A DNA stretch of 62,748 nt, counting the filler. It is 13 parts of 13 records of this genome, joined end to end, with 100 filler letters (N's around TTAATTAATTAA, not from the genome) between each part and the next. Parts side by side here need not be neighbours in the genome. Positions count along the whole stretch, not along the records: positions 17,555 to 23,113 come from SRR15195285_6172; 12 more parts are not named here. One strand, 5' to 3'. The translations under genes and the position numbers were made by a program. The notes beneath the pieces are model-generated. The model was not told where the DNA came from. It was given only the letters and a program-made list of their open reading frames with translations, and made no database searches. Below, in pieces: positions 4,874 to 36,156 of the stretch; position 1 is the first letter of the stretch, and every line of letters begins with the position of its first letter.

Positions 4874-4973
4874 NNNNNNNNNNNNNNNNNNNNNNNNNNN
4901 NNNNNNNNNNNNNNNNNTTAATTAATTAANNNNNNNNNNNNNNNNNNNNNNNNNNNNNNNNNNNNNNNNNNNN
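4874..4973. other. Artificial contig-joining spacer (first of 12 identical spacers)
   Basis: 44 N + TTAATTAATTAA (stops in all six frames) + 44 N. Repeated at 9461, 13493, 17455, 23114, 27127, 30988, 36056, 40132, 45772, 49734 and 59190. Confidence 0.99.
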
Positions 4974-9560: not shown

Positions 9561-12500
9561 CGAATGCTTCCTCCCAGTCGTCCGACGCAAGCGCAACCAT
9601 GACTTCTTTCAGCTCGTCGAAGCCTAGTCCTGGAATGCCGTCACGCATCTCGATGAGACGAAAAGCATCTTGTGCCATAGCAAGTGACACTTGGCTACCA
9701 CCGTTTCTCTCCCACCAGTCTGCAAACTCCTCGAAATCGATCTCGCCTGATCCGTTTTCGTCGATCTCATCAAAAATTTCGGTCACAGTTGGTGTGTACA
9801 CGGTCACGGTGGCGGCGTCCCGAGAGATTCCTGCGGCCTCCAAAAATGGTCCAACGGCGTCGATGCCCGGGGCCAGCCAGCTTGAGGTTCCGTCCACTGG
9901 GTTTACGAAGTAGCTGCGGCCAGACCCAGGATCAGTGGCCTGCTCCCAACTGTTGGACGCTACTGCTATCATTACATCTTTGAGTCCGTAGATACTGACG
10001 CCAGAAGTACCATCTCGCTCCGTTACAAGGTCAAAGGCTCGCTTAGCCAGTTCCAGCGTGCTACCAGCGCCACCACGGCTGGTCCACCACTCACCGAACT
10101 CATGAAAGGAGACACAGCCAGAGCGATCCGAGTCAATACATGCAAAGATCTCCTCTACTGTCGGTACACTGGCTGCATGTAGCGACTTAGCGCTGGTATC
10201 AGCAGCGGGCGACTCGACCTCAAAGGATGATGCAAGCGGATTGATCATTCCAGTAACTGCGTTAGATTTTGGTTGTTTGGTTTCCGTGCGAGCCCAGCCC
10301 GACGGCGATTTGGTCCAGCCGTGCTTGTGCATGTTTTCGACAACCTTCTCACGTTCCAGGTGGATGCGCTGTGTCCGAACATCGGGAGGTTCTTCGAGCT
10401 GCGACATGATTGCCTTCTGCTTGGCGTGCCAGTCGCGAAGTCCGCTGAGGATTTCGTTGAACTCATCACGGTCCACCTCACCAGACCTGTCCGCATCGAA
10501 CTTTGTAAACAGGTCTGCTGCCACCTCCCTCATTTCGTCGGCCATGCCCGAACGGATGGTGCGGATTGTCCACCAGTCTAAAAACTCGTTCAGACTAATC
10601 GTTCCCGACTCATCGACATCAATTTGCTCAAATACCGGCAGTTTCACGCTTGCGATTCCGATCTGCCCTAGCTTTGCGAGCACACCTGTCTTCTTGTTGG
10701 CATCTACCTGGAGGTCGTCCACAAGTTTGCCCACGTCCGCCAACGGGTCGCATTCGTCTCCAGACATGTGCGCCCAAGCAATCTTCCAGCGGTCCCGCGC
10801 AATCATACGGTTAATGTTGGCTGCCGTGCGACTTTTCGTGTGTGCGGTGGCGAGCAAGACTAGAACCACCAAGATTGCACTCATTACCTTTGCAACAAGA
10901 CCCGTCCTTTCCTTCAAATCTGAGTCCACTACTGCCACAAAGTCGTTGTTGATGCTCACTGTGAACATGCTCATTAGCAGCAGAACACTGAAGCTATCCA
11001 ACTGGCTCTCATTCAGGTGCTTGAATGGTCGCACGGTTGCTTGCAGGCAATTGTATAACATCAGCAGCAATACCACCAAAATTCGCCAGTCGGCAAGCTG
11101 TAACGCCACATCTGTCGCACGATTTCGGCTGTTGTAGACGAATGCAATTGCTGTTGGGCGAGTAATCCAAACGACGGCCCACCAGTATCGCTGTCGGCGC
11201 AGAGGGTAGTAGATTACGCTTAGGTAATCTCGTGCCGCGTACTCAGCACTGTGTGCATCCGACCAGTCTTTGGATTCCAACACGACTGCACCCTGCGAGA
11301 AGCCAAATTTGAGATAGGCCTCTATCCGGAGGAGCTTGGAGTGTTCATCCATTCTCTTTGCCATCTGTTTGCCCAGAATCAATGGTAGAGCGATTGCGAA
11401 CGTGGCAAAGATGAGCGCAGCTAATATCAAGTGCACGCTGTGTTCTTCAGTACTACACGATTGCGAAGGGTCGACTCGCAGATGACCGACATCAAAGGCC
11501 CAGGCAGAACAGTCATCCCCTCGCTCGCACGGCCGCGAGAGATCATCTCTGCAGAAGAACAGACTGATCGCCCGCAAATTGATAGCAAACAGCGAGGATT
11601 GCAGCGCGAAAAATAGTGCCATTTTGCCTTGCCAAGGAGCCCTCTTCCACAGGCCTGCCAGGAAGACAACGCAGACGGTGGTGCAAATGTTGTACGCGGG
11701 AATTGAGAACTTCAACATCCAGTCGTAGTAAAACGTGCCAAAGCTGATGCATTTCCCGTCCGTCTGATCTGGCGTATCCGGACTCATGGACACTGCTCCC
11801 GCGAGCTCCGTCACAAAACCGAGTCCACCAAAGGTTTGACTCGGAAGGAGCACCATGGTTTGGACAAAGAACAACGATATCCCAATGATGCTAGAGCTGT
11901 TGTGTATGTCACAGTCGCGGCCTGTGATAATGCGCCGCGACTTGAACAGGAAGAACAAGCACATCAGTAAGTACATGCCGTACGTCACGACCAAACTCTG
12001 CACGTCGAATTCCCCGCAAGGGACACAGCTCCCATCGACCTTCGTGAAATCTTCGTCCGGGCGATCATCTTTGCCGTTCCAGCAGTACGCGCACAGCGGT
12101 CCTGTTGACCCAGGGCGACAGGCGTTCGGAGAGTCTTTCTCGACATCTTGTACGTGGGGGTCTAGTTCTGCGGGGCCATCAGAGTTGCAGTCTGGCGACT
12201 TCGCGCCGTGCTTGCAATACCCGACGCAAGTTTTGTCTGACAAACAGTGTACTGGTTCAAACGGCTCTGGATTGATGCTGCTGTAGTTTGCTAGACTACT
12301 GCTCCCGCCGCCACTCTCGTCACCGGCATAGTGATACACATTGATCCAGAAGCCGGCTTTTGCATATATGTGGTTCGAAATGCCGTCGCAGACTGCACCG
12401 TCTGGGCACTGTTCGCAGTGCATCAGCTTTTGTTTGTCTCCGGAAGTTCCATTGACAAAACGTGAGTGATAATTCACGAAATAGTTGTGCTCACAAATGC

Positions 12501-13492
12501 ACTTCGTCTGCCCGCTTGTAAGTGTTGTGCTATGGTCATCACAACCCTCACAAAACTCCTGACTATCGTCCGGGATCTTGCCTATTGGACATTTTGTACA
12601 AAATCCAGCAGCGCCGGCATGACCGTCTGGACACACTTCGCAGGCAGTTTGGTTGACATTCGGAGCTTTGCCGAGGTCACAGGTTTCACATGCAGTCGTA
12701 TTTGCTGACCTATATTTACCGTCCGCACAGGGCACGCAAAGCGTCGGAGTTTCATCTGAGTTTGGTGCTTTGCCCTCAGAACACGTTTCGCATGCAACTC
12801 CGTCCACAGTGACACTACCGGTGGGACACTTGCGGCAGATATGGTTCGGCAGGGAGATATTGCCTGCAGCTGTGCTAGCTGAAATTTCCCCCGGAGAGCA
12901 CGCTATGCATTGGCCAGTGGATGAAGCGCTGCCAGGAGGACACTCCTCGCAGGAACTCCGATTGGGTGCTGGCTGCTTTCCTGAACTGCACGTTTGACAA
13001 ACACTTTGGTCGTCTACCGTGATCGCGCCCAGCGCGCATGCAGCGCATCTCCCAGTGATAGTTGCTTCTCCCATTTCGCACTGGACGCACACTGTTCTGT
13101 TCTGCCCCTGTTCCTTTCCTGGCGGGCAAACTTCACAGCGCGAAGAGCTCTCGTCAGGGATTTTGCCCTCACCACACTCAGAGCAAACTCCGGCGTATGT
13201 CGTGGCCGAGCCACTCGGGCACTCCTCGCACGTGGTCCCATCTGATGCTGGCTGCGTGCCATCATCGCACTCGCCGCATCGTGTTTGGCTGTCCTGTGGA
13301 ATCTTGCCTGGGGCACACTGCTGGCACATTCCTGTGTTTGGTGTGGCCGTGGCCTTCCCAGCATCACACTCTGTGCAATTGTCATGCGTGCTTAACGGTT
13401 GCTTTCCAGCATCGCACACAATGCAGGACCCCTGATCCTCATCAGTAAACCTACCCGGTCCACATCCCTCACAGTTGCCTGTGGTGGTGGCG
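9561..13492 (-). CDS. Receptor-like membrane protein, copy 1 (partial at both ends): Cys-rich CxxC repeats of ephrin-receptor-like/GCC2-GCC3 type, ~9 TM helices, EF-hands and WW domains
   Basis: Frame open across the whole contig. CxxCxxGK repeats, GPLCAYC, hydrophobic helices with YYPLRRQRYWW and RPF motifs, EF loops DVDESGTISLNE, DADRSGEVDRDE, DSDRSGCVSFHE, DENGSGEIDFEE, and WW domain WEQATDPGSGRSYFVNPVDGTSSWLAP. Confidence 0.85.
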
Positions 13493-13592: not shown

Positions 13593-16500
13593 CGAATGCT
13601 TCCTCCCAGTCGTCCGACGCAATTGCAATTACAACTTCCTTCAGCTCGTCAAAGCTTAGTCCTCGCATGCCATCGCGCATCTCGATGAGACCGAAGGCTT
13701 CTTGTGCCATAGCCAGTGACACTTGACTACCACCATTTCGCTCCCACCAGTCTGCGAACTCCTCGAAATCGATTTCTCCTGATCCATTTTCGTCGATCTC
13801 ATCGAAAATTTCAGTCAGACTTGGTGTGTATACTGTGACGGTGGAGGCGTCACGAGATATTCCTGCTCGCTCCAGAAACGGCCCGACAGCGTCGATGCCT
13901 GGTGCCAGCCAGCTTGAGGCTCCACTTGCTGGATTGACGAAGTACTGGCGGCCAGATGCAGGATCAGTGGCCTGCTCCCAGCTGTCGGACGCCACTGCGA
14001 TCATTATATCCTTGAGACCGTGGATATTGACGCCTGGGGTACCATCCCGTTGTGCAACGAGGTCGAAGGCTCGCTTGGCTAGTTCCAGCAAGCTACCAGC
14101 TCCGCCGTGGCTGGTCCACCACGTGCTGAACTCGTGGAAAGAGACGCTGCCAGAGCGGTCTGAGTCAATGCACGCGAAAATCTCCTCCACTGTGGGCACA
14201 CTAGCTGCCTGTGCCACCTTAGTGCTGACAGATGGTGCCACAGCACCGGGAACACCGGCTGCAGACGACTCGACTTCAAAGGGTGATGCAAGCGGGTTGA
14301 TCATCCCGGCCACTGAGCCAGTTCCCGTGCGGACCCAGCCCGAAGGCGACTCAGTCCAGCCGTGCTTGTGCAAGTTTTCGACGACCTGCTCACGCTCGAG
14401 CCGGATGCGCTGCGTACGAGCTTCGGGAGGTTCATCGAGCTGTGACATCATTGTCTTCTGCTTGTCATGCCAGTCGCGAAGTCCGCTGAGGATTTGGTCG
14501 AACTCGTCTCGGTCTACCTCGCCAGACCCGTCCGCATCAAATTTTGTGAACAGGTCCGTTGCCACCTCCCTCATTTCGTCGGCCATACCTGTGCGGATGG
14601 TGCGGATTGTCCACCAGTCCAAAAATTCGTGCAGACTAATCGTTCCCGACTTATCGATATCAATTTGCTCAAATACTGGAAGCTTCACACTCGCGATTCC
14701 AATCTGTCCTAGTTTTGCCAGCACACCTTTCTTCTTGTTGGCATCTACCTCGAGATCCTCCACGAGTTTGCCAACCTCTGCCAACGGATCGCACTCGTCT
14801 CCAGACATGTGTGACCAAGCTGTCTTCCATCGGTCGCGCGCGATCATACGCGTGATATTGGCTGCTGTGCGGCTTTTAGATTGTGCTGTAGCGAGTAAGA
14901 CCAGGCATAACAAGATTGCAGTCATTACCCGGGCGACAGTGCCTGTCGTGACCTTCAAGGTGGAATCTACGGCTGTAACAAAGTCATTGTTGATGCTCAC
15001 TGTGAACAGGCTCATCAACAGCAGCACACTGAAGGCGTCCAGCTGACTTTCATTCAGGTGCTTGAAGGGTTGCACGGTTGCTTGAAGGCAGTTGTACAGC
15101 ATGAGCAGCAACACCACCAAGATTCTCCAATCCGCAACTCCAAAGGCCACGTCAGTTCGACGGTTTCGGCTGTTGTAGACAAATGCAATTGCTGTGGGAC
15201 GAACGATCCAAACGACCGCCCACCAGTATCGCTGTCTGCGAAGAGGATAGTAAATTACGCTTAGGTAGTCTCGTGCTGCGTACTCAGCACTGTGCGAGTC
15301 TGCCCAGTCTTTGGATTGCAGCACGACTGCCCCCTGCTCGAAGCCATATTTGAGGTAGGCCTCTATCCGGAGCAGCTTGGAGTGTGCATCCATTCTCTCT
15401 GCCATCTGTTTGCACAGAATCGATGGTAGAGCAAATGCAAACGTGGCGAAGATGAGCACGGCTAATGTCAAGTACACGTAGTAATCGCCTTTGCGGCACG
15501 ATTCAGAAGGGTCGACTTTCAGATGACCGACTGACGGCGAGAGGTCGTCTCTGCAGTAGAACAGACTAATCGCCCGCAAATTAATTGCAAACAGCGAGGA
15601 TTGCACTGCAAAAAACAGGGCCATTTTACCTTGCCAAGGAGCTCTCTTCCATAGGCCTGCCAAGAAGACAACGCAGACCGTGGCACAAACATTGTACACC
15701 GGAATTGAGAACTTCAACAGCCAATCTGTATAAAAATGGCCCGTGCTGATACACTTCCCGTCCGTCTGATCTGGTGTGTCCGGACTCATGGACACTGCTC
15801 CTGCAAGCTCCGTCACAAAACTGAGTTCACCGAAGGTTCGACTCGGCAGAAGAACCATGGTTTGGACGAAGAACAATGAGATACCAATGATGCTAGAGCT
15901 GTTGTGGATGTCACAGTCACGGCCTGTGAGAATGCGCCGCGATTTGAATAGGAAGAACAAGCACATCAGCAAGTACATGCCATACGTCATGACAAAACTC
16001 TGCACGTCAAACTGCTCGCACAAGACACAGCTCCCGTCGACCTTCACGTAATGTTTGTCTGGACGACCGTCTACACCGTCCCAGCAGTACGTGCACAGCG
16101 GTCCTTCTGAACCCTCTCGACACGCGTTGGGGGAGTCCTGTTGTACGAAGGGGTCTCGGTCTAGTCCCTCGGGTGGGCCAGCATCGCAGTACGCAGTCTT
16201 CTGGTGCTCACAATACCCGACGCAAATTTTCTTCGACAAACAGTGAACCGGTCTAAACAACTCTGGGTTGATCGTGCTAGTGGTGGTGGTGGTGTGATTC
16301 ACATTTATCCAAAACCCGGCTTCGGCGTATATGTTGTTCGAATCTGCCGGACAGACCGCACCAGTTGGGCACTTATCGCAGCACGTAAGGCAGATCGAGT
16401 TTTCGTCTCCGTTGGAAGTTCCATTGTCATCGTCGGCAAAACGTGAGTAATTCAGGAAGTAACCATTTTTACAAACACACCTGGTCGCGCCGGCTCCACG

Positions 16501-17454
16501 TGTTGTGCTGTGCGGTGGGCATTGCTCACAATTGTTCTGTGCTTTATCTGGAATTTTGCCTTCTGCACAGGTTTTGCATGATCCTGTGGCCCCAGCCTTG
16601 CCTTGTGGACACACTTCACAGTCAGTTCGATTCGAATTGGGTGCTTTACCGACAGGACACTCTATGCATGCAGTCGCATTTCTTGACCTATATTTACCAT
16701 CTTTGCACTCCACGCATTGCGTCGGACTTTCGTCGGAGTTTGGTGTTTTGCCCTCAGAACACACTTCGCATGTAACCCTATCTGCAGTGATACTCCCAGT
16801 TGTACACTTGTTGCAGGTCAGACCGTCATCCACTGGCACTTGCCCTGCAGGGCATGGACTGCATTCGCCAGTAGACGAAGCGCTGTCAGGAGGACACTCC
16901 TCGCAGGCACTCTTGTTGGTTGCTGGGTGTTTTCCTGCGGTACACATTTCACAGCTACTTTGGCCATTTTTCGTGATCCATCCACTGGCGCACGCAAGGC
17001 ATGTCCCAGTGATAGTTGCCTCTCCCGCTTCGCACTGCACGCACGCTGTTCTGTTCTCCGCTTGTTCCTTCCCTGGCGGGCAAACTTCACATCGCGAAGA
17101 GCTTTCGACCGGAACTTTGCCCTCATCACACGGAGAACAAACTCCGGCGTATGTCGTGGCGGAGCCAGGCGTGCAGTCCTCGCACGTAGTCCCATCTGGT
17201 GCTGGCTGCTTGCCAGAATTGCACTCACCACACCGGGTTTGACTATCCTGTGGAATCTTGCCTGAGGCACACTGTTGGCATATACCTGTGTTTGGGATGG
17301 CCGTGGCCTTCCCAGCGTCACATTCTGCGCAATTGTCGTGCGTGCCTAACGGTTGCTTTCCAGCATCGCACAGCATGCAGTCCCCTTGCTCGTCATCGGT
17401 TATCTTGCCCGGACCACATGCATCACAGTTGCCTATGGTGGTGGCGCTTCCGAC
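13593..17454 (-). CDS. Receptor-like membrane protein, copy 2 (partial at both ends), homologue of copy 1
   Basis: Same architecture and collinear with 9561-13492. TM, EF and WW regions are very similar; the Cys-rich and juxtamembrane regions are more divergent, with indels. Confidence 0.85.
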
Positions 17455-17554
17455 NNNNNNNNNNNNNNNNNNNNNNNNNNNNNNNNNNNNNNNNNNNNTT
17501 AATTAATTAANNNNNNNNNNNNNNNNNNNNNNNNNNNNNNNNNNNNNNNNNNNN

Positions 17555-20428
17555 GCGGCGGCGGCGGCGGCGGCGGCGGCGTCGTCGCTCGGCAAGCGGG
17601 GCAGCGACGGCGGTGGCGAGGAGCAGCCGACGAGTAAGAGGCCGCGTGAGGCGGCCGGAGAGTCCGGTGCTCCCGTTGATCTGCCAGAAGACGACGATGT
17701 GGACCTTGCACGCGCAATCCAGCTGTCTTTGGAGGGCTCACCGCCAGCGCATGACAGACCGGCCTCACCCTTACGTGACCGGAAGGACGCCGCTGGCATC
17801 GCCTTTAAGTCAGGCGCATCCTCCAAAGCCCACGCAGAAGTAACCGCACCCGCTGCAGCTGTAGCAGCATCGACCGCACCAGAGGCATCGGCTGCATCGG
17901 CCGCATCGGCCGCAGGTGAATCGGCAGCAGCTGCGGCGCCCCCGGTCGCGCCAGCAGCTTCCGAGGACGGCGACTCCTTCACATGCCCTGTGTGCTGGGA
18001 CCCTGTCGCCTGCGCCGCGCGACCTCCGTGCGGACACATGCTCTGCCGTGTCTGTGCCCAACAGCTGCTCCGAGACGGCGGCGCACGGTGCCCTCAGTGT
18101 CGTGCCGAGGTTGCTGAAGCTCAGCTGAAGGGCTCGTCCGCTGCCGACGCCGCGGCCTTAGAGCTGGCCAAGAGCACCCTCGACGCCGAAGCGTTTGCAG
18201 AATGGGAGCAGCGCCGCGCAGACGGGGAAGGCCTCGATAAGCGCGCGACCACCGGGACAGCAGCGAGCAGCGGCGAGGAGCAACGCGCGAACGCGAAGAT
18301 CGACGCCGAACTGCGATTCATGGCATCCGCAGCTCCGACCGGCAGTTCCAAATGCAAGGTGTGCGCGCAGAAGATTGCGCGGCGTGACTTGCGCATCCAT
18401 GCGCATGGCGGCGGATTCACGCACCTCGGCTGCATGGACTTTGCGGCCGGCCTGACAGCTGCGCGCGACCGCGCACGCGAAAAGACGGGAGTGCCCGGCG
18501 CTGAAGTTATTCTCAACGTGGTGACGACACCCGAATTTCACGGCCCCTGCAAGCTCAGTGAGGAGCAACTTGCCACACTGAAACAGAAGCTGCGCGAGCC
18601 AGCGGGCAACCAGCCTTGGTGGTGCGTTGTCCGACACAAAGGTTCGCTATGGGCTGATGAGGACGATGATGACGGTCTACTGAGCGACGATGATGACCTG
18701 GATGACCTTGACGATTCGGACTCAGAATCAGATTCGGATGAAGATGATTTAGACGACGATGACGACCACCATCACCACCATGATGTGCCTCCCAGTGCTT
18801 TCATCGACCAGCTGACTAGCGGTGGCACTTCTTCGCGAATATCAACATCGCTCACTGTGTCAGCCGCGCCCACGGACCGTGCGCGTTGTGCTGGATGTGG
18901 CGAAGCGATCCCTCGGGGCTCACCGCGACTGCACGAACCCACTGGGACTGGGTTCCGGCACTGGCATTGCCGCGACTTTCAGACCGAATGGACATCGGCT
19001 TGCCGCGCTGCACGGCAGGGAGACGACGACTCGGTATCGCTGGAAGTGAGATCAAATGTCGATCCGACTGGCATCGGCAATCTCGACCGCCCGATGGTGC
19101 AATTGCTGAAGCAGATTCTTCGTTCTACTGCAGAGCTCCTGCCAGATTGGGTGTGGGTGCGTCATCGTGGCACTCTGTGGAGCTCGAATAATGGTACGCC
19201 CCGCCCAGTGGCAGGGCCTCCACCGCTGCCTGCCAATCAGCATGCGATGGCTCAGGCTGTCGGGGAGATTTTCGGCGGTGCTTCGGGTGGCGCTGCCGCA
19301 GGTGAGGCCCAGGCCGGCGGTGCTGCCAGACTGGAGCCTGGAGCTACAGCCCTGCTTAGGGAGGCTTTGGGAGTAGCAGCCACTATGGGCGCAGCAGCAG
19401 CAGACAGTTGGCACGCACGTCCGATGGTGCCAGTCCGTAGACGCGCGGCCAGGCGGCAAGGCAGCAACGCGGCTGGTGGGTCCTTTTTAGACTACCCTGT
19501 TGCTGACGACGATAGCGATGAAGACAGCGCCGATGAGGAGGACAGCTCGGATGAGGCTGCCATCGCGCAAGCAGGTCACCTTGGCGCAGCTCTGGGCGGG
19601 GCCTTGAGCTTACACGACGCGGCAAATCTGGAAACAAATCAGATATCTGCAGATGAGGCAGATAGAGCAGGCCTGGTTGATGCGTTAGACGAGTTAGACA
19701 GAGCAGGTCTGGTTGACGAACCCGAGCCGTGGGCTAAGATTAGTCTCTCGTATGTGACTTCTGCGGCCCCAAGCGATCGAGGCAAGTGCAAAACATGTGG
19801 GCAGGCCATTGCTCAAGGTTCGCTTGTCGTGGCAGAACGCCAGGGAGGAGGACATTGCCACTTCGGCTGCAAAGACTTCGAGAAAGAAGTGACCGAGGCA
19901 TGTTTGGAGGCTCGTGCTGGACCGTGTCAAGAGCGTTTCGTTGCCCGCCCGGTCGGGGCTGATGAGGACGTTGGCTCCTCCGAGGCGGAGCGCCAAGTTG
20001 CTTTGACGCTTGCAGTGGACATCGAATCGCGCTCGGACAGATTGACGGTACGTGTGCCGTCCGAGCCAACCAGGCTTGCATTCAGCAAAGCTTGGATTGT
20101 TTCTGATCTAACTTGTGTGTACTTCGATCTGCTGTGCTGTTCTGTGATTTGCTTTTACTATCAGCTGGTGCATGATCAAATTGAGGTGGCGCGCAGAAGT
20201 GTAGAAGAAGCGGCAGATCGGCAGCCCTGGTGGGTCAGGACTGCCCTCCTACGCGGTTCGCTCTGGGAGGGCGCCACCCCTGGACTAGACAACCTCGACC
20301 TGAACTATCCCTACTCGGACGACGATCTCGACGAGGACAGTGATACGTCCAGCGACGAGGAAGAAGGCGGTGGAAACTGCGACTGCGAGTTTTGTGTTGC
20401 GACAAGGATGTCAAGGATGAATTCGTAG
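17555..20428 (+). CDS. Putative E3 ubiquitin ligase: UIM + C3HC4 RING + three PARP-type zinc-finger modules with acidic linkers (5'-partial)
   Basis: Frame open from the contig start. UIM EDDDVDLARAIQLSLE; RING CPVC...CGHMLCRVC...CPQCR; three repeats of AAP-x-[GD]-[SR]-x-x-CxxC-x-x-x-I...HxxC. Probable intron 20048-20164. Confidence 0.8.
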   Translation, partial: AAAAAAAAASSLGKRGSDGGGEEQPTSKRPREAAGESGAPVDLPEDDDVDLARAIQLSLEGSPPAHDRPASPLRDRKDAAGIAFKSGASSKAHAEVTAPAAAVAASTAPEASAASAASAAGESAAAAAPPVAPAASEDGDSFTCPVCWDPVACAARPPCGHMLCRVCAQQLLRDGGARCPQCRAEVAEAQLKGSSAADAAALELAKSTLDAEAFAEWEQRRADGEGLDKRATTGTAASSGEEQRANAKIDAELRFMASAAPTGSSKCKVCAQKIARRDLRIHAHGGGFTHLGCMDFAAGLTAARDRAREKTGVPGAEVILNVVTTPEFHGPCKLSEEQLATLKQKLREPAGNQPWWCVVRHKGSLWADEDDDDGLLSDDDDLDDLDDSDSESDSDEDDLDDDDDHHHHHDVPPSAFIDQLTSGGTSSRISTSLTVSAAPTDRARCAGCGEAIPRGSPRLHEPTGTGFRHWHCRDFQTEWTSACRAARQGDDDSVSLEVRSNVDPTGIGNLDRPMVQLLKQILRSTAELLPDWVWVRHRGTLWSSNNGTPRPVAGPPPLPANQHAMAQAVGEIFGGASGGAAAGEAQAGGAARLEPGATALLREALGVAATMGAAAADSWHARPMVPVRRRAARRQGSNAAGGSFLDYPVADDDSDEDSADEEDSSDEAAIAQAGHLGAALGGALSLHDAANLETNQISADEADRAGLVDALDELDRAGLVDEPEPWAKISLSYVTSAAPSDRGKCKTCGQAIAQGSLVVAERQGGGHCHFGCKDFEKEVTEACLEARAGPCQERFVARPVGADEDVGSSEAERQVALTLAVDIESRSDRLTVRVPSEPTRLAFSKAWIVSDLTCVYFDLLCCSVICFYYQLVHDQIEVARRSVEEAADRQPWWVRTALLRGSLWEGATPGLDNLDLNYPYSDDDLDEDSDTSSDEEEGGGNCDCEFCVATRMSRMNS

Positions 20429-20785
20429 GAGCTTGTCATGGAAGATTAGCGCAACCCGGGTTGCCAGGCGTGGTCGCAGCAGACCAGCTGGCTTGTATGT
20501 AATCTAGACTGGTCTGAATCCTGAATCCTGCACCCACACCCTGGCAGATCAGCAGGCAGATACTCCGCAGAAAGAACGAATGCAGATGTCGATATGTTCT
20601 TGCCATTATGGTATCTCAATTTTGCATTCCACAGCAAGTCTCAACTTGATGGGGTCTGCAGACGGAATGGTCAGACTGCTGTATCGACAGCACGCCATAA
20701 AAGGGTCGGGCTGGCGGGCTTGGACGCTTGTCCGGATTTACTGACACATCCTAACTCGATCTCAAATCTGTGCGTGTCGCTGACC

Positions 20786-21781
20786 TCACCCCTCTATCGA
20801 GGAGCTGAGCTCAGCCATCAACTTCTTGAACTCCTCTAGTTCTTCTGGAGTGATGCAGCCGCTTTGTATCTTGTCCATCATTTGCTCCTGCAAGGCGCCA
20901 ATAGCTTCATACGCCTTGTCTGCGTGCTCATGCTGTTTGTGCAGGACCCACCCTTTGCGGTAGGGCTTCATGGAGTGACCAGCCGCCTTGAACGCTATAA
21001 TGCTGTCCGGTGAGGGCTGACTCCTCGGAGCTGGCTCCGGCTCCGGCTCCGGCTGTGGCGGCTCCGGCTGTAGTGGCTCCAGCTCCGGCTCCGCATCACA
21101 AACTTCCTTGGACGGTGGTTGCGGCATCTGCAGCTTAGATCGCTTTGTCAGGGGAGGCAACCCGGAGCCCGGTCCAGCGAAACCAGGGCCGCAGGCAGAG
21201 TCAGGACTGAGCCGTCGCCTCTCACTGTGGCTGCTGCGCGCTGTTCGCGGCGAGTACCAGCTTGATCTGGGCGCAGCCTTCCACGGGTGCTGCGTCACCG
21301 TTGGCTCATCTGATACAACCAGGCCGCGGATTAAGAAGTACACGAGTAGGTCGTGAAGGCGGGGACCTGGGACAAGACGAAACCGAAGAAGGCGCGGAAC
21401 AACCAGACACCACAGAGACTTACAGTGTCTCCGATTCCACGTCATCGAGTTCGTGAAGATGGTCGGACTGACCTTCTTTCGGTGCGTCGGAGGGGCGGCT
21501 GCTCGTGGCCGATCCTCGAGCTTGCGCGCGACACGCCAGCCGTCGCTGGTGATCGGCCGCTTGACGTGCTCCTCGATTTGGTCGATCGCCGCGTAGTGCC
21601 TCGGGGTGCCCAGGTTCGGGATGTAGTTTGTCCACGATGGATTGGTGTTGTCCCAGGCCGCCTCGAGCCGTGCCGTCGTAGGCGACGCCCACCGTGGATC
21701 CCTGCAGCCGCCGTCAAACATCGGGTGCGAGACCAGCCGCGCATTCAGCGCCAGCCTGCTCTGGCGCTCGCGTTCACCCAT
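20786..21781 (-). CDS. Hypothetical protein with a PE-repeat linker; one probable intron
   Basis: ATG at 21781 (MGERERQ...). Intron 21423-21310 (GTAAGT..TCAG) removes an atypical hydrophobic insert. Contains EPEPEP. Confidence 0.55.
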   Translation of the reverse strand: MGERERQSRLALNARLVSHPMFDGGCRDPRWASPTTARLEAAWDNTNPSWTNYIPNLGTPRHYAAIDQIEEHVKRPITSDGWRVARKLEDRPRAAAPPTHRKKVSPTIFTNSMTWNRRHCKSLWCLVVPRLLRFRLVPGPRLHDLLVYFLIRGLVVSDEPTVTQHPWKAAPRSSWYSPRTARSSHSERRRLSPDSACGPGFAGPGSGLPPLTKRSKLQMPQPPSKEVCDAEPELEPLQPEPPQPEPEPEPAPRSQPSPDSIIAFKAAGHSMKPYRKGWVLHKQHEHADKAYEAIGALQEQMMDKIQSGCITPEELEEFKKLMAELSSSIEG

Positions 21782-23213
21782 ATGCCTGAACGCCGAGAGA
21801 AACGCTCCACTCCGCCGTCCCCACCGCCACGTCTCTGCCAGAGCGCGTCCGACCCCCGCTCGCTCCACCTGCCTCCACACGCACCCCGCAGCCAGCCAGC
21901 TCCGGACACGCCAGCCTGTCTTTCGCGCAGCACCGCACGCTCCAGCACTGCCCCTGCTGCCCAGCGAGCACCGCAGGCGGCGGCGGCGATGCGCTAATAC
22001 GGTACCGACCGCGGCAGCCAAGATTGAAGGAAGATGGTCGCCACCCGCCGGACCCGGAGTGCCGTCCTGCGAGTCCGACTCGATCAATTGATGCAACCTC
22101 GTCAGGAGTTCTCATTGAGGCGTTGATCGCACGCAACTCCAGACTCGTCGGCGATTTGCATGAGACTGCTGAGAAATCGAGCGTCTCTTCAGTGTTGTCC
22201 ACCGTCCGAGTCATGAGTGCTTTTCGCATCCACCGCAGTTATGAATGGCATCAATTATGCGTGTGGCACCCGGTTGGGCTTCGCGTTGTTCTTGACGGGA
22301 CAAGTTCTATGATAGTTGATAGAGCAGCTGCCGAATCCAGGATAATGCAGAATGGTACTATTTTCCAGATCAGAATCCACGAACATTGAAAGAAATTTGT
22401 CCCGGCGCTTGACTTGCATGTCGAGCACAGCTGTTCCGCTGTCCACGACAGACAGCGACATGCCCATCGAGCCGAAAGATCAAAATTTGACATGGAGCTC
22501 ACTCATCGAAAAAGTCAAACTGGCCTCAGGCCGCACGCTCACAAAGACTTATTTCACCGGGATTGCGCTGAGTCAATTCATCATTATACAGAGACTGGGT
22601 GACTGAAAGAGTGAAAGTCCTTGTGGGTCCGAGCCGTGATAGTTTAATTATTCACTGTGTCGGCCGGTCAGAGGTCATCGACTCGCTGGGTCAAAGCCAG
22701 AACGAGAGCGCCGGGCTGGCGGTGTTGAGCGCCTGTCCGGAGGCGCTAGCGCCGGACCGGGGGGCTACCACCCGCCGAGTGCCACATGGACGGATGCGTC
22801 GCGACATTTCCTGCACATTGATGCCCCAGACCACGTTCACCTCGAGGTTGGTAAGGATTACCGCGCGTTTTACCACAGTCGCCCGAGAGGGCACATGCGC
22901 CGCCTACCGGACGCATCGCAGGCGCACTGAGCGAGACAGGGCAAAGAATCGCTCTATACGGTGTTTTGGGCAGGTCTGAACACCCATGATACCCCCCCGA
23001 CCGACGAGCTCATCAAGCAGATCGCCAAAAGACGCACTAGGCTTTCCGTGCTGCTCCACACTGCTCGAAGCCTCCGGAAATTGGCTGGAGACAGCTCAAA
23101 AGGGCTCGAGGACNNNNNNNNNNNNNNNNNNNNNNNNNNNNNNNNNNNNNNNNNNNNTTAATTAATTAANNNNNNNNNNNNNNNNNNNNNNNNNNNNNNN
23201 NNNNNNNNNNNNN

Positions 23214-27517: not shown

Positions 27518-30500
27518 CTAGCCAGCTGGGGCTACGTGACTGATGCCACTGTTGTTGCGCTTGCCTGCGTTTGCGTGCTTTTCGCGATGTCTTCGCCGAC
27601 TTCGTCTCACCCCAGTCGCGATACCCCTCGGGCTCTGGTTCGCTTTGCGATTGCGTGGTCGCCGATCAGCCTGCTGGCTCACTCTCAGTACACGACGGCA
27701 AAGCTTGAGCTGGCGGTCGCCGTATCGTATTGCTGCCTTCGCTGCGTCTTGCTCTGCAAACTCCAAGATTGCGAAGCCACGACAAGGTACCATACCACCC
27801 GAGTCCAACGCACGCCACCCACCGCGCCAGCTTGGGCGTAGCTCCACTGCCTTTTTGATCACATCTGTGTCGCTCATCTGGCTCACAGCCTCCAACTGTG
27901 GGGTCAGGTGTCTGCCCCCAGTGCCACCGCTGCAGCAAAGGTGCACCTCGATGTGGGTCGCAATGTGCAGTGCCCCGTGCTCAGAAAGAATTTTGCGCGC
28001 CTCAGAGACAGTCTTTGCCATGGCCCGTGCTGCCGCTGCCTCCGCGTCTCGTCCTGTTGCAACCGGCAGCTCGACATTGAGCACCACTCCAAATGGTTGA
28101 AACAATGCCGCGAGCTCCGTCTCGCTGCAGTTGTAAGGGCAGTTGCCCACAAATATCTTGCGCCCCTTCCCTGTTGCATTGCACTGAGTTGCTACATTCG
28201 CCTGCTGCTGCTCGCCGTGTTGCTGCTGCTGCTGGCACCATCTAGGATCGAGTGACTCACGTATTGCAGTTGCCTCCTCCATCTCGTAGCCGTCCAAGCG
28301 TCGGTGATATCCACGGAGCTCGCTCGTCACAACTGCTGCGCGAAGCTGCTCACTGAGTGCTGCTTCGGTCGGTACTGGAAGTTCCAGCCGCTCAAAGAAC
28401 TTGTTCCAGCTCAAGCGATTCTGAGCATTGCGGGCGCCAGCGCCTAGTATGTCAACGCACGCCGCTTGCAGCTTCGCAGCAGTTCTAGGACGTGGGCGAG
28501 AAAGGCGCGCGCGATAAGCTTCCGCCCTCTGTTGAATGCCACCCGATGGCAATGCCCCGACATTGAGCAGGAAAAACGCCTGAAACATGCAGAGACGTAA
28601 AGACGTGCCACAGCAGCGCAGAGTTGCCTTCAGCCGGTAGTCTGAGACAGTGCTGTCGTCACCGTGACTGGCCATCACGCATCCAGGAGAGACAGCATCT
28701 GTTCTGGGCTCCATCAACGCCAGCGATTTGTCCTTGTCAATATTCCAGCGAACATTGCGAATTAGTACCTCTTGAATAAACACAGGCGCAATCTCAGCCC
28801 ACGAATTTGCGGGGCACAAGTAGAGCAGAATCAACAGCTCGCCAAGGTCGTGGATCACGTGCTTGTTCCGGCAGGACTCATGGCTGGCGAACTCGTTAAC
28901 CCAATGCTCAGCGCGTTGAGTGATGATGGGATATTTGACTGCTAGCTCGAGCAGCATGTGGTGCAGCGCACAGAAGCCAAGCAGTGATTTTTCTGAAGCG
29001 AACCGCGAGGTCTCACCCTTCTCCATCAGAGAAACCACAAGAGCATTCATGATCCTCGGTAGTACTTCCAACGCGATCATTGGGTTGAAACCACAAGCGC
29101 CGGTTGCTGTGAGACTTGGGGAAGCGAGCCGAGTGAGGTATCGCTCAAGAAGCGGGAGTGAGCGTTCTGCGTGCCGGTGATCCAGCACCAATGGCAGCCA
29201 AGCGTCGAAGTGCGTACCCCAGACCCCTCTGCGCACTGCACACTCGACAAAGGCTGCCTCTGACAGCAAGTCAAATTCGCAGGACACCTCCACGAGGCTC
29301 GAGCAGAGCTGTCCACAGCGTGGGTTTCGTCTCTTCGTACGCAAACAAATCCCGAGCGTCTGATCTTCCAGAGAGCAGCGGGTGTGGAAGCAGAGCATCT
29401 CACGACGAGTAAAAACTCTGTAGACGTCGCCAAACTCAGCAAAATGTTTGCAAGTTCTGAGCAGAGCGCTGATTGCATCCACTTCCAGCAGCTGACAGAC
29501 TGCCAGCCATACATCGTCATCGACGTCGCACCAGTCTACCACCAGCTCTGCGATCGTCACTGCGGTTTCGAGACTCACATCGACGAGATGACCCTCCTTT
29601 CCCGCAATGCACGCAATTGCTGTGGCCTCTGGTGGTGGTGGCGGCGACGGCGATGGCAATTGTGGGTAGTGCCGTCCGTGCTGCTCGTGGAACGCGTGTG
29701 CTGCACGAATCGATTCTCCTTGACAGTCGACCTGACCGGACCAGCTAAAATCAAAAATCACACCGGTTCCAGTCTTCGGTGTCCAGATGCCGTCATGCTG
29801 AAGTGGCTGCATTCCCTTGCGTCGAAGAATACATATGAATGGGATTTCGTCTCGGCTTTCATCTCGGTGACAGAAATTTTCCACCCACGCGCGGTAGCGG
29901 CCTTTCGGTGCAGCCTGCCAGTGAACGTTTTCGACGGGAGCAGCGCTGTACGGAGTGCTCGCATTCATGTCTACGTCCAACTCACCACCGCAGGACCCAC
30001 GGCGATGAAAATAGGAGATTTCGTCGCCGCCTGGTCCGACACAGTGCAAATCAAGATCGTCGATTGAGTCCCACATCAAAGAGACGGTGATCTCGCCCGT
30101 GCATGCTCCTGCTCGTGCAAGGCGCTTGCGCATTGCATCTGGCACATTGCCGATGTCTCCGATAGCACCCGTATCCCGACCACCATGAGGACGGCCTGAT
30201 ATCATGTAGCTCTTGATTCGCCGGCCATCGTCCTGTGGAACGTACTCGGCGAAGAGAAAACTCTGCAATTGCAGCAGAATAGAGAGCACGGTGTATGCTG
30301 AAGACCATCCACTGTAAATGCTACCTGTCGCAGGTTTCAGCATATCCAAACAGATGTAGTGGCCTTTGCAGGCGCGGTGGTGATTGAAGTCGTAGCCTGT
30401 GAAAACGTTTGGGTGCGGTAGATCGGTACACAGCTTGATAACTGGTGGGGCGACCGGATACTCGTGTGAGAAGCTCATCTCGGCGTGAAACACGACGCCG

Positions 30501-30838
30501 TGGTATTTGCCGTCCGGAGCGGTCATCGTCAACCTCCACTCAAGAATATCGTCGTCTGCAGGCTCTGCAGCAATCGTCGGCAGCTGCCCGGACTTGGTCG
30601 CCGCACGAACCTCACGCAGATCCCGCAGCAGCCGCTTCGCTGCGTCAAAGCCAGGCTGTAGGACCATCCCGTGTGGCACAGCGCCACTCTCAGTGCCTTC
30701 CTCACGAGATGTGCCACACTCAGTGCAGGCTGCCGCCCCCGCCGCTGGTGACGTGCGAGTGGCGCTGGGGCCCTCCTCGTCGTCGGAGTCCGAGCTCTCC
30801 AGCGGGGCGAATGGATTGGTGGACCTATTGGACGCCAT
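27518..30838 (-). CDS. Multidomain ubiquitin-conjugating (E2) protein: UBC + YfaP/DUF2135-like domain + F-box-like segment + helical domain + split RRM
   Basis: KRLLRDL...YPVAPP...HPNVF...ICLDML...WSSAYTVLSILLQLQSFL with catalytic Cys; VSLMWDSIDDLDLH...GGELDVDMN...VENVHW; DDDVWLAVCQLLEVDAISALLRTCKHF; KIFVGNCP...RGFAILEF. Alternative start at 30916. Confidence 0.85.
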   Translation of the reverse strand: MASNRSTNPFAPLESSDSDDEEGPSATRTSPAAGAAACTECGTSREEGTESGAVPHGMVLQPGFDAAKRLLRDLREVRAATKSGQLPTIAAEPADDDILEWRLTMTAPDGKYHGVVFHAEMSFSHEYPVAPPVIKLCTDLPHPNVFTGYDFNHHRACKGHYICLDMLKPATGSIYSGWSSAYTVLSILLQLQSFLFAEYVPQDDGRRIKSYMISGRPHGGRDTGAIGDIGNVPDAMRKRLARAGACTGEITVSLMWDSIDDLDLHCVGPGGDEISYFHRRGSCGGELDVDMNASTPYSAAPVENVHWQAAPKGRYRAWVENFCHRDESRDEIPFICILRRKGMQPLQHDGIWTPKTGTGVIFDFSWSGQVDCQGESIRAAHAFHEQHGRHYPQLPSPSPPPPPEATAIACIAGKEGHLVDVSLETAVTIAELVVDWCDVDDDVWLAVCQLLEVDAISALLRTCKHFAEFGDVYRVFTRREMLCFHTRCSLEDQTLGICLRTKRRNPRCGQLCSSLVEVSCEFDLLSEAAFVECAVRRGVWGTHFDAWLPLVLDHRHAERSLPLLERYLTRLASPSLTATGACGFNPMIALEVLPRIMNALVVSLMEKGETSRFASEKSLLGFCALHHMLLELAVKYPIITQRAEHWVNEFASHESCRNKHVIHDLGELLILLYLCPANSWAEIAPVFIQEVLIRNVRWNIDKDKSLALMEPRTDAVSPGCVMASHGDDSTVSDYRLKATLRCCGTSLRLCMFQAFFLLNVGALPSGGIQQRAEAYRARLSRPRPRTAAKLQAACVDILGAGARNAQNRLSWNKFFERLELPVPTEAALSEQLRAAVVTSELRGYHRRLDGYEMEEATAIRESLDPRWCQQQQQHGEQQQANVATQCNATGKGRKIFVGNCPYNCSETELAALFQPFGVVLNVELPVATGRDAEAAAARAMAKTVSEARKILSEHGALHIATHIEVHLCCSGGTGGRHLTPQLEAVSQMSDTDVIKKAVELRPSWRGGWRALDSGGMVPCRGFAILEFAEQDAAKAAIRYGDRQLKLCRRVLRVSQQADRRPRNRKANQSPRGIATGVRRSRRRHREKHANAGKRNNSGISHVAPAG

Positions 30839-31375
30839 GTGGAGGTGAGTGGGAAGCTTCCGACAGTGTGTTGTGCCACTGTTGTTGGTTCTTCTTGCTG
30901 ACCCGCCATCGAGCACCGTACGTACCGATCGCGCCGCGCGGTGCGCCCTCAGCCGGACGCGCGCCCGGGGCGCGGCCGCGCGGCCGCNNNNNNNNNNNNN
31001 NNNNNNNNNNNNNNNNNNNNNNNNNNNNNNNTTAATTAATTAANNNNNNNNNNNNNNNNNNNNNNNNNNNNNNNNNNNNNNNNNNNNGGGGGGGGGGGGG
31101 GGGGGGGGGGGGCGCAGGGGGATGAGCCCCTGGCGGGGCTCACAGCAACGCTAGTTAACAAATGTATCGAAATGTATCCAAATCATCTGTCCAGTAACGC
31201 TGCGTGTAGTTTGCAGTCAACGTGTGGCGGCGTTGTGGCAACAATTATGACACTACTAAAGCCAGGCAGCTAATGGAGAGGAGACAATCGGTTCGTGCGC
31301 CGCTCGACGACGCGTAAGGCGATCCCGCGTCGATTACGATGCGACATACATTAGATCATTTAGCTCCGTTCCCAT

Positions 31376-34300
31376 TCATAGCGGCGTGTACTTTTCCACA
31401 AATTCTGTGACTGGTCCGTAAAATTCTTGACCAACAGGTATTCGGTGGCCTTCGTTGTGCTCGAGTCGCTGCGGCGAGATAATGCTACTCTTCCCTGAAC
31501 GATCTCGGCTTATCTGTAGTTCGCTTATCAATTGCTCCGTTGCGGAGAACACCTCGTCAGCGCGATCATAAACGACAAGTGTCGGGCAGTCGCACTGTGC
31601 CTGATATCCTGCGGCGTAGATTGGCGAAAATAGCAGAACCCACTTCGCGCGTAGCCTGTTGGCGAGTTGTGCGGCCATTGCGCCCCCTTGCGAAAACCCG
31701 ATGATGCCTACAACTGCTGTTGATGCCGGCTGGTTGTCACTTCCTTTTTCGTTGCGATTGCTGTCCTGTTCGTTGCCGAGCAGGTCTTCAATGTAAGCAA
31801 TCGACTCGTTCAACCCGATCGGGGGCTGGTCGTTTCCTCCGTCCTCGTCGGGGTACGTCCACCAACCGTAGCTGTCATTTTGATCGAGCCCTTCAGCAAA
31901 TTGTGCCGCTCCAGAAGTCTTGTGTGGGCCATTAGGTACCACCATTTGGTATCCAAGACGCTCTAATATCTCAGTTCCAAGCGGAGACTGCACCGAGATT
32001 TGCTGCTGGAGTACAGTGCTGCTGGTGCGGTACCCATGCAGGCATAACACGCGGCCACGCGTGGCCTGACGTTGAACTACATCTGGCTCGCCTTGACTGA
32101 GCTGCTGTGCTAGCTCCGAAATGGTCGGATTCTTTGATAAAACGAACGGCGAAAAGTCGCGACCAAGAAATCGCCGTAGTCTCTGCGAGAGTCGGAGGGA
32201 CAAGAGGGACGTCACTCCGAGGTCATCGATGCCCATGTCTGTAACTAGTTGTGATAGATCAACCTTTAGTTGCTCCGCCAATTCCTGCAGCAGAAACAGA
32301 CGCACATCATCCTCACCGCGCACCACAATGTCCGATACACTTGCAACGCGCGAGTAGTGCTTCAAAATTGCGCCCGGTGGTGGCATGCCGAAGATATAGT
32401 CCGCCGCTTCTGTCATGTCGGCTAGTGCCTCGACCATCTTGTCAACGCTGCATCGATGGAAACCGGCTGGTGCTGGTGGCTCAAACCAATGGCCATCGAA
32501 AAGTGGTGGCACGAAGACAACCCAAGACGCATGGCCTGCCTGAGCGCGCTCCCAGGAGAGTGTAGTAGCTTGTGCTGATGGGCCTGCTCGGCATGAGTGC
32601 ACCGAAGGGAGAAGCACATCTATGCTTGCCAGCGTGACACATGATCCAGAACCTGCACAGATGGGCTCGAAGCTGTCAACATGGCCTGGACCAACACTGC
32701 AAAGCATCACCGTAGCTTTGCCCAGTTCGGCTGGTGCTTCGTCCCCTGGCAGTAGAAGCTTCGGTGTAGTTCCTACCTTCTCAATCGCGTTGAGCATCGC
32801 GGTAACCAAAGGGTTCACTTCGGCGGCTAAAACTAGCACATGCGATCCTGGCTGTAGAGTCGCACCGCACAGTTGGCTGGCACGAGGCGTGCCTTCATCA
32901 GGATAATCTAAGAACCATGTGCGCCCGTTGTTGATGTATGGTGGAGCCGAGATATCAAGCAACGGTGCAATGCATCTGTCATCGACGGTTTTTACAGACA
33001 GCACAGACAACATCAAAGCTGGAAGCGACACTGACCATGCTCTGCCACGTGACTGCCAGTTTTCGTTGCCGTCACCAACGACCATCAGCCAAACCCTGCC
33101 AGTCCATGGAAGCTCTTGTTGCAACGCAAGTAGCAGCGTCTCCACGCCAGGTATACTCTCCTCTTCACTGCCAACCACCAAGACCACTGAACGTAGTGGA
33201 ATCCTTTCGACCGGCTCACCAGACCATGTGCAGACCTCTGGCGTGTCCAGCTGGCGTGCCAGTGCTCCTGCGTGACTACTAGCACATGTGCCTAAAGCGA
33301 TTACTCTTGGTATTGCAGCCATGTTCTCTGCAGATGATGGTGCATAATTGCGGTGCTGTACACGTAGAGGTTCAGGAGGTAAAACATCAAACGGTCGCAA
33401 TTCTAAACCTTTCAAAGTGAACAATGGAACATCTGAGAAGATATGGAAATCTAGCAGAGATGTGGATTCGTCTGCTGTCACGTTGACGTCCACTGATTTT
33501 TCTGGACACTGGGCGTAGAATTGAACGCAATTGATGCGCACAGGTGCGCCCTGGAAGCCTAGCGCTGAAACTAACGGAGCAATATGGAAGCACGCGTCTA
33601 TAGTCACGAAGTCCAGTAGAAAAGGACTTTCCCGATGAGCGACTGCACCGATACCCGAGTTTGGCGACTGCAAATGAACAGAGCTGAGGGCCTGAAAGCG
33701 ATGACCATAGTCGAAGCCTCCGTCAGCCATCTGGGCGTACAGCTGTTCCACAGGGTAAGCTTGATGTGTCGCCCCAATCCCACTATGCATATCAGAAATT
33801 ATGACATCATGTGCGTCATCTAAGCGCACGCCATGGCAGGTGCAGTGGGTGACCCACTCGCCTGATGGCGACCAGCTTGCAATCAAAATGTCAACACCCG
33901 TCTCGATTGGTGTAGCCGTAACGCGCAATGGTCGAGGCGCACCGCCATCTTCGAGCGGCAGTGCCTTGCTGAAGATTACATCCTGCAATTCCCAGCTTAC
34001 CCAAGCATTTGCTTGGCAAACTTCGGCAGCAAGCGCGACGTAGCCAGCGCCAGGAAATATCGGTTCACCGCGGTACCGATGATCCGCCAGCGGCTTCCAT
34101 ACCGGCTGTCGTAGATCCACGTGCCACGACTGTCTGCCGCAAGGCTCAAGCTTTGCGTAATCAAGCACCTTCGACAAGCTCGTAGTTCCAGTTCCATTCG
34201 GCTCATTGTTGCTGATAGCAGCTGTGGCAGGTTCGTGGTCTTCTTGCTCCGATGCCATTTGTTTGAGAGTGTTCTGGTCTGGCTTGCCTGACGCTGTGCG

Positions 34301-35938: not shown

Positions 35939-36156
35939 TGTCCCGCGTACCCGGCGCTCGCCGCCCGATCCACGCGACACAGTTTCCCGCCCCCTGATCG
36001 AAAGCTGGGGCGCTCAGCCACCCCCAGCTGCAGCACCCACCCCAGCCCCGCGAGCNNNNNNNNNNNNNNNNNNNNNNNNNNNNNNNNNNNNNNNNNNNNT
36101 TAATTAATTAANNNNNNNNNNNNNNNNNNNNNNNNNNNNNNNNNNNNNNNNNNNNT

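Follow-up and report, generated by a model that had tools for sequence, protein, structure and literature searches.

A RING protein with three divergent PARP-type zinc fingers from an uncultured marine protist that may tag proteins at DNA

PARP-type zinc fingers (zf-PARP) are the classic first responders to DNA breaks, and they occur on PARP1, DNA ligase III, plant ZDP and the Rad16-like motors of protists. Among the RING ubiquitin ligases of the damage response, RNF138, RAD18 and RNF168 pair their RING with ubiquitin-binding motifs, and RNF138 and RAD18 also carry DNA-binding zinc-finger or SAP modules, the folds of which differ from that of the PARP-type finger. In kinetoplastids, the T. brucei orthologues of a T. 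cruzi protein carry Pfam annotations for zf-PARP, SNF2_N, RING and Helicase_C domains (PMC5976635). Here we describe a gene at 17555-20428 (+) of a 62,748-nucleotide stretch of DNA (the window) that encodes a RING, a probable ubiquitin-interacting motif (UIM) and three zinc-finger repeats. A sequence-only reading had taken the product for a DNA-break sensor that writes ubiquitin. Our analysis upholds the RING, the UIM (as probable) and the PARP-type homology, and qualifies that reading: the repeats do not reach the Pfam zf-PARP cut-off, they lack the full base-stacking loop, and the combination of RING with PARP-type fingers has a precedent. Overall, the sequence features point to a RING E3 ubiquitin ligase with fingers of a DNA-binding type, which may tag proteins at DNA.

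The repeats lie at 18305-18652, 18836-19180 and 19733-20266 (all +), the third being interrupted by an intron. They are paralogous, with pairwise BLASTP E-values far beyond chance (1e-17 for repeats 1 and 2, 6e-12 for 1 and 3, and 4e-18 for 2 and 3). All four zinc ligands of the CxxC...HxxC finger are invariant across them, spaced as Cx2Cx19Hx2C in repeat 1 (18353-18433) and as Cx2Cx20Hx2C in repeat 2 (18887-18970) and repeat 3 (19787-19870), and each repeat ends in a tryptophan-rich tail of the form [QL]P[WD]W...[KR]G[ST]LW, at 18611-18652 (QPWWCVVRHKGSLW), 19139-19180 and 20222-20266. Repeats 1 and 2 are basic, with isoelectric points (pI) of 9.55 and 8.55. Between them runs linker 1 (18653-18835, +), 61 residues rich in Asp, Glu and His with a net charge of -28; linker 2 (19181-19732, +) has 184 residues and a net charge of -19, and the C-terminal acidic tail one of -14. 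The motif CDCEFC, read from the sequence, follows at 20378-20395 (+). All of these elements had been described at about these coordinates from sequence, with a length of ~170 residues for repeat 3; that figure is inflated by the 117-nucleotide in-frame intron, and the spliced repeat has 139 residues.

The repeats are clearly divergent homologues of the PARP1/DNA ligase III zinc finger, a proposal of the sequence-only reading that is supported by profile searches and, with modest scores, by the predicted fold. A profile built from the three repeats retrieved 104 proteins at E<=1e-3 among 1.84 billion representatives. Pfam scanning covered 98 of the 104, leaving out P0002, P0006, P0008, P0014, P0023 and P0052, which are orthologues or fragments. 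The zf-PARP family (PF00645) was present above its gathering cut-off of 39.3 bits in 86 of the 98 (37 of 47 and 49 of 51), some of them polynucleotide 3'-phosphatases (PNK3P) and others PARP1-like and bearing PADR1. The 12 without it were eight members of the RING family described below, the orthologue fragment P0050, P0082 (a sub-threshold finger, 32.1 bits), P0016 and P0041; the last two, a magnetochrome-like match and a protein with an FGE-sulfatase domain, match only the non-zinc part of the profile and were set aside as apparent chance or repeat matches. A search of the PDB with the repeat profile ranked PARP1 Zn1-Zn2 first (E 5.9e-6), and hhalign aligned 15 family repeats with 130 canonical fingers at a probability of 98.4% and an E-value of 7.7e-15, over 42 columns ending at HxxC. 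Scored singly against PF00645, the repeats reach 19.4, 17.8 and 17.0 bits and match only model positions 3-27/49 of 87, about the initial third; the Pfam test of each repeat that the sequence-only reading had proposed thus gives scores below the cut-off. The orthologues score 25-36 bits.

The predicted structure is consistent with this assignment, at modest scores. An AlphaFold2 (AF2) model of repeat 1, built on a 15-row alignment without any canonical finger, has a mean predicted local distance difference test score (pLDDT) of 89.3 and a predicted template modelling score (pTM) of 0.76. In a Foldseek search of the PDB, PARP1 Zn1 or Zn2 accounts for 22 of the 23 matches listed through rank 27, with a best E-value of 5.1e-3. 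VIA-align, a search independent of Foldseek, also placed PARP1 Zn1 and Zn2 on top, with 72-77 residues aligned at 2.9-3.0 root-mean-square deviation (rmsd) and a Z of 6.0, within the range (Z <8) that the tool warns can reflect a common arrangement. The aligned span, model residues 6-103, takes in nearly the whole PARP1 finger, and DNA ligase III reaches Z 5.1. From the model together with the sequence evidence, we read repeat 1 as a predicted zf-PARP fold with additions. The helices at residues 51-66, after HxxC, and 91-105 are covered by the alignment with the canonical domain. Beyond that domain the model has a long strand at 72-81 and a terminal W-rich strand at 112-117, which appear to enlarge the sheet that is based on the long first strand (3-14). 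The conserved extension of each finger had been suggested to form an unnamed subdomain. This suits the W-rich tail, a family-specific addition found in the RING family only among the 1.84 billion representatives; much of the rest looks like the ordinary C-terminal half of a zf-PARP domain, because model residues 7-103 align with residues 6-91 of Zn1.

Ahead of the fingers, the C3HC4 RING (17984-18100, +) is genuine, in line with its earlier recognition from sequence. With 33.7 bits it exceeds the Pfam cut-off of PF13920 (27), and with 23.2 bits that of PF00097 (21), and its eight cross-brace ligands, C-x2-C-x11-C-x-H-x2-C-x2-C-x10-C-x2-C, are conserved in the family alignment. Its best PDB sequence matches are TRIM21 and TRAF6 (E ~2e-7), and the RINGs of RAD18 and RNF168 are also among the matches (E 1e-3 to 2e-2). 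The AF2 model of the RING has a pLDDT of ~90 and finds the TRAF6 RING as its top Foldseek match (E 8.9e-5, rmsd 1.8-3.2); some of the top-matching TRAF6 entries were solved with the E2 Ubc13. After the RING comes a helical hairpin (18137-18262, +), modelled by AF2 as helices at residues 61-74 and 77-102 with a pLDDT of ~90 and conserved in all family members. When the RING and repeat 1 were modelled together, pTM was 0.54, the linker at model residues 101-110 had a pLDDT <50, and confident packing of the RING-hairpin part against the finger was absent.

Two shorter motifs precede the RING. An acidic run followed by LARAIQLSLEG (17687-17737, +) is a probable UIM, the strength at which we retain this element of the sequence-only reading: it scores 19.3 bits (E 9.6e-4) against the Pfam UIM model (PF02809; cut-off 21), and the corresponding segment of orthologue P0005 scores 21.0 bits, at the cut-off. 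The pattern acidic-x-L-x-x-A-x-x-x-S-x-x-acidic, which we take to be the UIM consensus, is visible by eye, and the motif is kept in P0002, P0003 and P0005 and degenerate in P0007. Nearer the N-terminus, KR-x12-KRPR (17594-17647, +), read from the sequence, fits what is presumably the consensus of a bipartite nuclear localization signal and is kept as KR.S.GG.EQP..K..R in the orthologue alignment.

We favour, with modest confidence, the view that this is probably a nuclear RING E3 ligase in which a UIM, a hairpin and PARP-like fingers that tether it to nucleic acid are combined with linkers that are acidic and presumably disordered. The fingers, or at any rate repeats 1 and 2, which are basic, would hold the ligase on nucleic acid, the likeliest target being the DNA backbone or a DNA structure, while the RING would bring E2~ubiquitin to chromatin-bound substrates. 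The UIM could bind ubiquitin already present, leading to retention or amplification, and the acidic linkers might bind histones or, alternatively, cover the basic fingers until displaced by competing DNA. Least secure in this proposal is a strict, PARP1-like recognition of nicks or ends, because the base-stacking loop is truncated and the linkers are long.

Several points count against this proposal. Beyond the caution attached to the VIA-align score, all Foldseek matches lie above E 1e-3, and unrelated chains (PLC-beta2 and rhamnose isomerase) reach a VIA-align Z of 5.6. The whole protein collects 30.3 bits against PF00645 over three stretches, short of the cut-off, and both the hidden Markov model (HMM) and hhalign alignments are limited to the N-terminal half of the finger. 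The net charge of the whole protein is -67, and repeat 3 is itself acidic (pI 5.65). Genomic context is uninformative, as the contig is 5.6 kb long and its sole further long open reading frame (ORF) has no Pfam match. The spacer between CxxC and HxxC is 19-20 residues (18-20 in orthologues), compared with 26-31 in 157 of the 178 fingers of non-family profile matches and 18-23 in the other 21. The loop that holds the base-stacking residues of PARP1 is shorter by ~8-10 residues in the repeats, and with this spacer the segment carrying the base-stacking F44 is largely missing. Finally, the position equivalent to PARP1 R18 is a Ser in repeat 1 of this protein and of all six orthologue clusters.

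Some of these features would also be expected of an active RING E3 whose fingers no longer bind DNA and serve instead to bind other proteins, poly(ADP-ribose) or RNA, or to regulate the RING within the same molecule. We regard this as a possible though rather doubtful alternative. The short loop (19-20 versus 26-31 residues), the replacement of the grip Arg by Ser in repeat 1 and the acidity of repeat 3 are consistent with it, as are the finger adjoining the RING in every family member, the presence beside the finger of TPR protein-interaction repeats, not of further fingers, in relatives P0010, P0019 and P0110, and a C-terminal half without sequence similarity to canonical fingers. To our knowledge, on the other hand, every characterised zf-PARP finger (PARP1, LIG3 and plant ZDP) binds DNA. 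Repeats 1 and 2 are basic, and so are the fingers of P0010, P0011 and P0019 (pI 9.2-9.6). The base-stacking loop of PARP1 is described in a review as adding only modestly to DNA binding, the key contact being the grip of R18/R122 on the phosphate backbone (PMC8150716). Repeats 2 and 3 and the single finger of the relatives retain the equivalent Arg, which stands three residues ahead of the first Cys; this makes DNA binding plausible and argues against its loss. By their predicted additions and their spacing, the repeats form a new subtype of PARP-type finger, extended and with a short loop.

We judge it very unlikely that the protein is a genuine break sensor in the manner of PARP1, joined to ubiquitin writing, in which the three fingers would cooperate on a nick or end and DNA would allosterically activate the RING. 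The fold family is that of the break-sensing fingers of PARP1, the same profile retrieves multi-finger repair enzymes (3-4 zf-PARP fingers with PNK3P in P0068, P0078 and P0107), and a RING, a UIM and a DNA-binding module together follow the logic of known damage-response ligases. However, the base-stacking loop is truncated, and the fingers stand 61 and 184 residues apart across acidic linkers, in contrast to the much shorter linker between Zn1 and Zn2 of PARP1. The joint AF2 model does not pack the RING-hairpin part confidently against the finger.

A bolder proposal, speculative and with a small chance of being right, is that the protein could be the founding example of a ubiquitin counterpart of PARP1: one polypeptide would read DNA lesions directly through a short-loop, beta-extended finger array and write ubiquitin in place of poly(ADP-ribose), the UIM would provide feed-forward retention, the linkers would serve as DNA-mimic autoinhibitors or histone grips, and the RING-finger ligases of which it is one would be a family specific to a lineage of uncultured marine protists. 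If true, this three-finger RING ligase would represent a differently wired damage response in little-studied marine eukaryotes, with lesion recognition coupled directly to ubiquitin, and its fingers would constitute a structural subtype that is new for the PARP-type finger.

The gene is truncated at its 5' end. The linker/N run ends at 17554, and the sequence starts within a GCG (poly-Ala) repeat. In an alignment with orthologue P0002, ~18 N-terminal residues and the start codon are absent at the contig edge, and orthologues P0002, P0003 and P0005 all reach further N-terminally than the product read from 17555. That position, the first of the interval given in the sequence-only reading, is a contig edge and not the start of the gene. 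The open frame continues from there to a stop codon at 20426-20428 (+), and comparison with RNA and orthologues divides it into exon 1 (17555-20047, +), a 117-nucleotide in-frame GT..AG intron (20048-20164, +) and exon 2 (20165-20428, +), which holds the end of repeat 3, the acidic tail, CDCEFC and the stop codon. In a metatranscriptome contig (run X16, record 22) 20046 is joined to 20164, with GT..AG at the ends, whereas the region is unspliced in a DNA contig (run X1, record 5); a further RNA contig (X15, record 19) stops exactly at 20047. Predicted orthologue proteins lose all similarity just after RSDR[LF][ST], and exon 2 is kept in the separate fragments P0014, P0023 and P0052. The junction itself is seen in a single RNA contig, at depth 2.2, and agrees with this comparative evidence. 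The gene is expressed: three metatranscriptome runs yielded contigs over parts of it, one contig being spliced.

The window was assembled from short contigs, the gene lacks its 5' end, and the sequence contains low-complexity Ala and Asp/Glu runs, all of which could hint at an assembly chimera or a decaying pseudogene with an architecture that is not real. This explanation is essentially refuted. The gene lies wholly within one contig, this architecture is found again in independent assemblies from several sources, and near-identical contigs of one DNA run span all 30 bins of the stretch, with RNA contigs, one of them spliced, over the gene. Across the six orthologue clusters (53-81% identity), moreover, the linkers vary while the domains stay conserved.

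The core formed by RING, hairpin and finger is a small unnamed family in uncultured marine protists, seen only in environmental assemblies. Proteins matching the full repeat including its tail were all RING proteins (P0010, P0011, P0015, P0018, P0019 and P0031, with P0021 and P0026 partial). These relatives consist of a RING, the helical hairpin and one extended finger with a tail of the form W...G-x-[LI]-[WF], and the N-terminal core is shared at 28-43% identity by P0010, P0011, P0015, P0018, P0019, P0021, P0031 and P0110-P0116. They lack a second and third finger, and no UIM was seen in the sequences read. In P0010, P0019 and P0110 the core is followed by TPR_12/TPR_10 repeats. The RING is longer in a third subgroup (P0015, P0018 and P0111-P0116), several gene models of which show a read-through interruption within the tail.

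A profile of the RING-finger module retrieved 19 proteins at E<=1e-5 among 5.8 billion clustered proteins. All 19 derive from environmental samples or single cells (ena, jgi, lgn and one eukprot), and they carry jgi 'hypothetical protein' labels or, in one case, a eukprot contig identifier, with no functional names. At the E thresholds used, the RING family was absent from the 86 PF00645-positive matches, and in this sample the combination of RING and finger and the W-rich tail are therefore confined to the family. A search of the ESM Atlas with the RING-finger module returned generic RING clusters only, with scores <=0.88, and a scan of metagenome contigs with the orthologue alignment gave 404 pattern stretches, of which none was confirmed. 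Three metagenome loci considered as members (L001-L003) were rejected, as they match only query residues 6-57, the RING. Without a named or cultured representative in the searches made, the family is a marker of a diversity in the eukaryotic ubiquitin system known from environmental data only. Practical consequences will stay limited as long as neither the organism nor the protein can be worked with in experiments.

Some details of the relatives were noted in passing. In P0010, P0011 and P0019, a group that includes TPR-bearing members, the first knuckle of the finger is Cx4C (CRAAGC, CRNPSC) in place of CxxC. In P0113, P0115 and related models, similarity breaks off after '...SQWFCE' and resumes at 'H[RQ]NSGN[VI]WG', which points to an intron left unspliced within the W-rich tail of these genes.

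The segments between and after the fingers also show local conservation. In linker 2, an acidic run with a AIAQAGHLGAALGG motif (19505-19600) is shared by every orthologue, even P0007, the most distant one, and by the fragment P0008. It was considered as a second UIM and rejected, since Pfam reports a single UIM stretch. The exon-2 fragments P0023 and P0052 retain the terminal CDCEFC in the form CxC[ED]FC-x-ATR; having only three Cys, it could not make up a zinc site by itself. Sub-threshold Pfam rows for Znf_XAF1_N, DUF7479, zf-Vps39_C and DUF2076 fall on the CxxC knuckles or on acidic runs and were treated as noise. PF27116.1 appears in the precomputed annotation of orthologue P0004 only and was not matched in a Pfam rescan; it may represent a recently added family or reflect the poly-Asp run.

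The window comprises 13 short contigs joined by N44-TTAATTAATTAA-N44 linkers (at 4918, 9505, 13537, 17499, 23158, 27171, 31032, 36100, 40176, 45816, 49778 and 59234) and is not one molecule, so genes on either side of any linker are not true neighbours. Genomic context is thereby confined to the gene's own contig, 17555-23113 (5.6 kb). The other contigs encode typically eukaryotic proteins, including a formin with an FH2 domain, EF-hand/WW giants, a UBC+RRM protein, a sulfatase and a protein resembling polyketide synthases (PKS), and near-identical DNA is present in runs labelled seawater or marine metagenome as well as in metatranscriptome runs. From these two lines of evidence, the source is an uncultured marine eukaryote (protist).

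On the gene's own contig, the sole further long ORF (20786-22096, -; 436 residues) had no Pfam match at E<=0.01 and may belong to a multi-exon gene. Two separate contigs encode paralogous proteins of ~1,260-1,290 residues (9561-13419, - and 13593-17376, -), each with many Cys-rich repeats of CxxC type, hydrophobic segments, several EF-hands and one WW domain. An ORF of 1,132 residues (27518-30916, -) joins a ubiquitin-conjugating domain (UQ_con) to an RRM, an unusual E2 architecture, and one of 1,534 residues (31376-35980, -) carries AMP-binding, PKS dehydratase, PP-binding and FSH1 serine hydrolase domains.

Among described systems, the sequence relationship of this protein to RNF138, RAD18 and RNF168 appears limited to the RING. 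Those families are marked by MIU/UMI, UBZ4, SAP and C2HC/C2H2 finger modules. Here, apart from RING, UIM and zf-PARP, Pfam matches were absent save sub-threshold noise, although MIU and UMI motifs may lack Pfam models and so escape such a scan. A UIM-RING-multi-zf-PARP ligase was not found described in the Creative Commons-licensed PubMed Central and bioRxiv literature. The plant ZDP-like polynucleotide 3'-phosphatases (P0068, P0078 and P0107) resemble this protein in placing an array of 3-4 zf-PARP fingers on an enzyme, but their effector is a phosphatase rather than a RING and their fingers are canonical, far over the Pfam cut-off.

A precedent in architecture is provided by Rad16-type SNF2/RING translocases of protists with an N-terminal zf-PARP finger, which likewise unite a RING E3 module and one or more PARP-type fingers in a single polypeptide. 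The combination of RING and zf-PARP, for which the sequence-only reading had proposed a search, is to this extent known from kinetoplastids (PMC5976635); the protein described here stands outside that family and has neither SNF2_N nor Helicase_C, both absent from its Pfam matches at E<=10. With no SNF2 domain, it is not a Rad16-type member. In those translocases the RING is embedded in the SNF2 ATPase, whereas here three fingers lie C-terminal to the RING, accompanied by a UIM, acidic linkers and a W-rich tail. One of the profile matches, P0039, has two zf-PARP fingers ahead of the apparent SNF2 start (placed by eye), one of them with a short loop of 21 residues, and is consistent with this layout.

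For the fingers themselves, the closest counterparts are Zn1 and Zn2 of PARP1 and the finger of DNA ligase III, with which the repeats share the CxxC...HxxC site, the N-terminal strand and the signature 'GRxxCxxCxxxIxxGxLR'. They differ from these in their short loop, in the predicted extra strand after the first helix (E72-81) and the W-rich strand (E112-117), and in an invariant 'DF' after HxxC, and they are attached to a RING rather than to a PARP or ligase catalytic domain.

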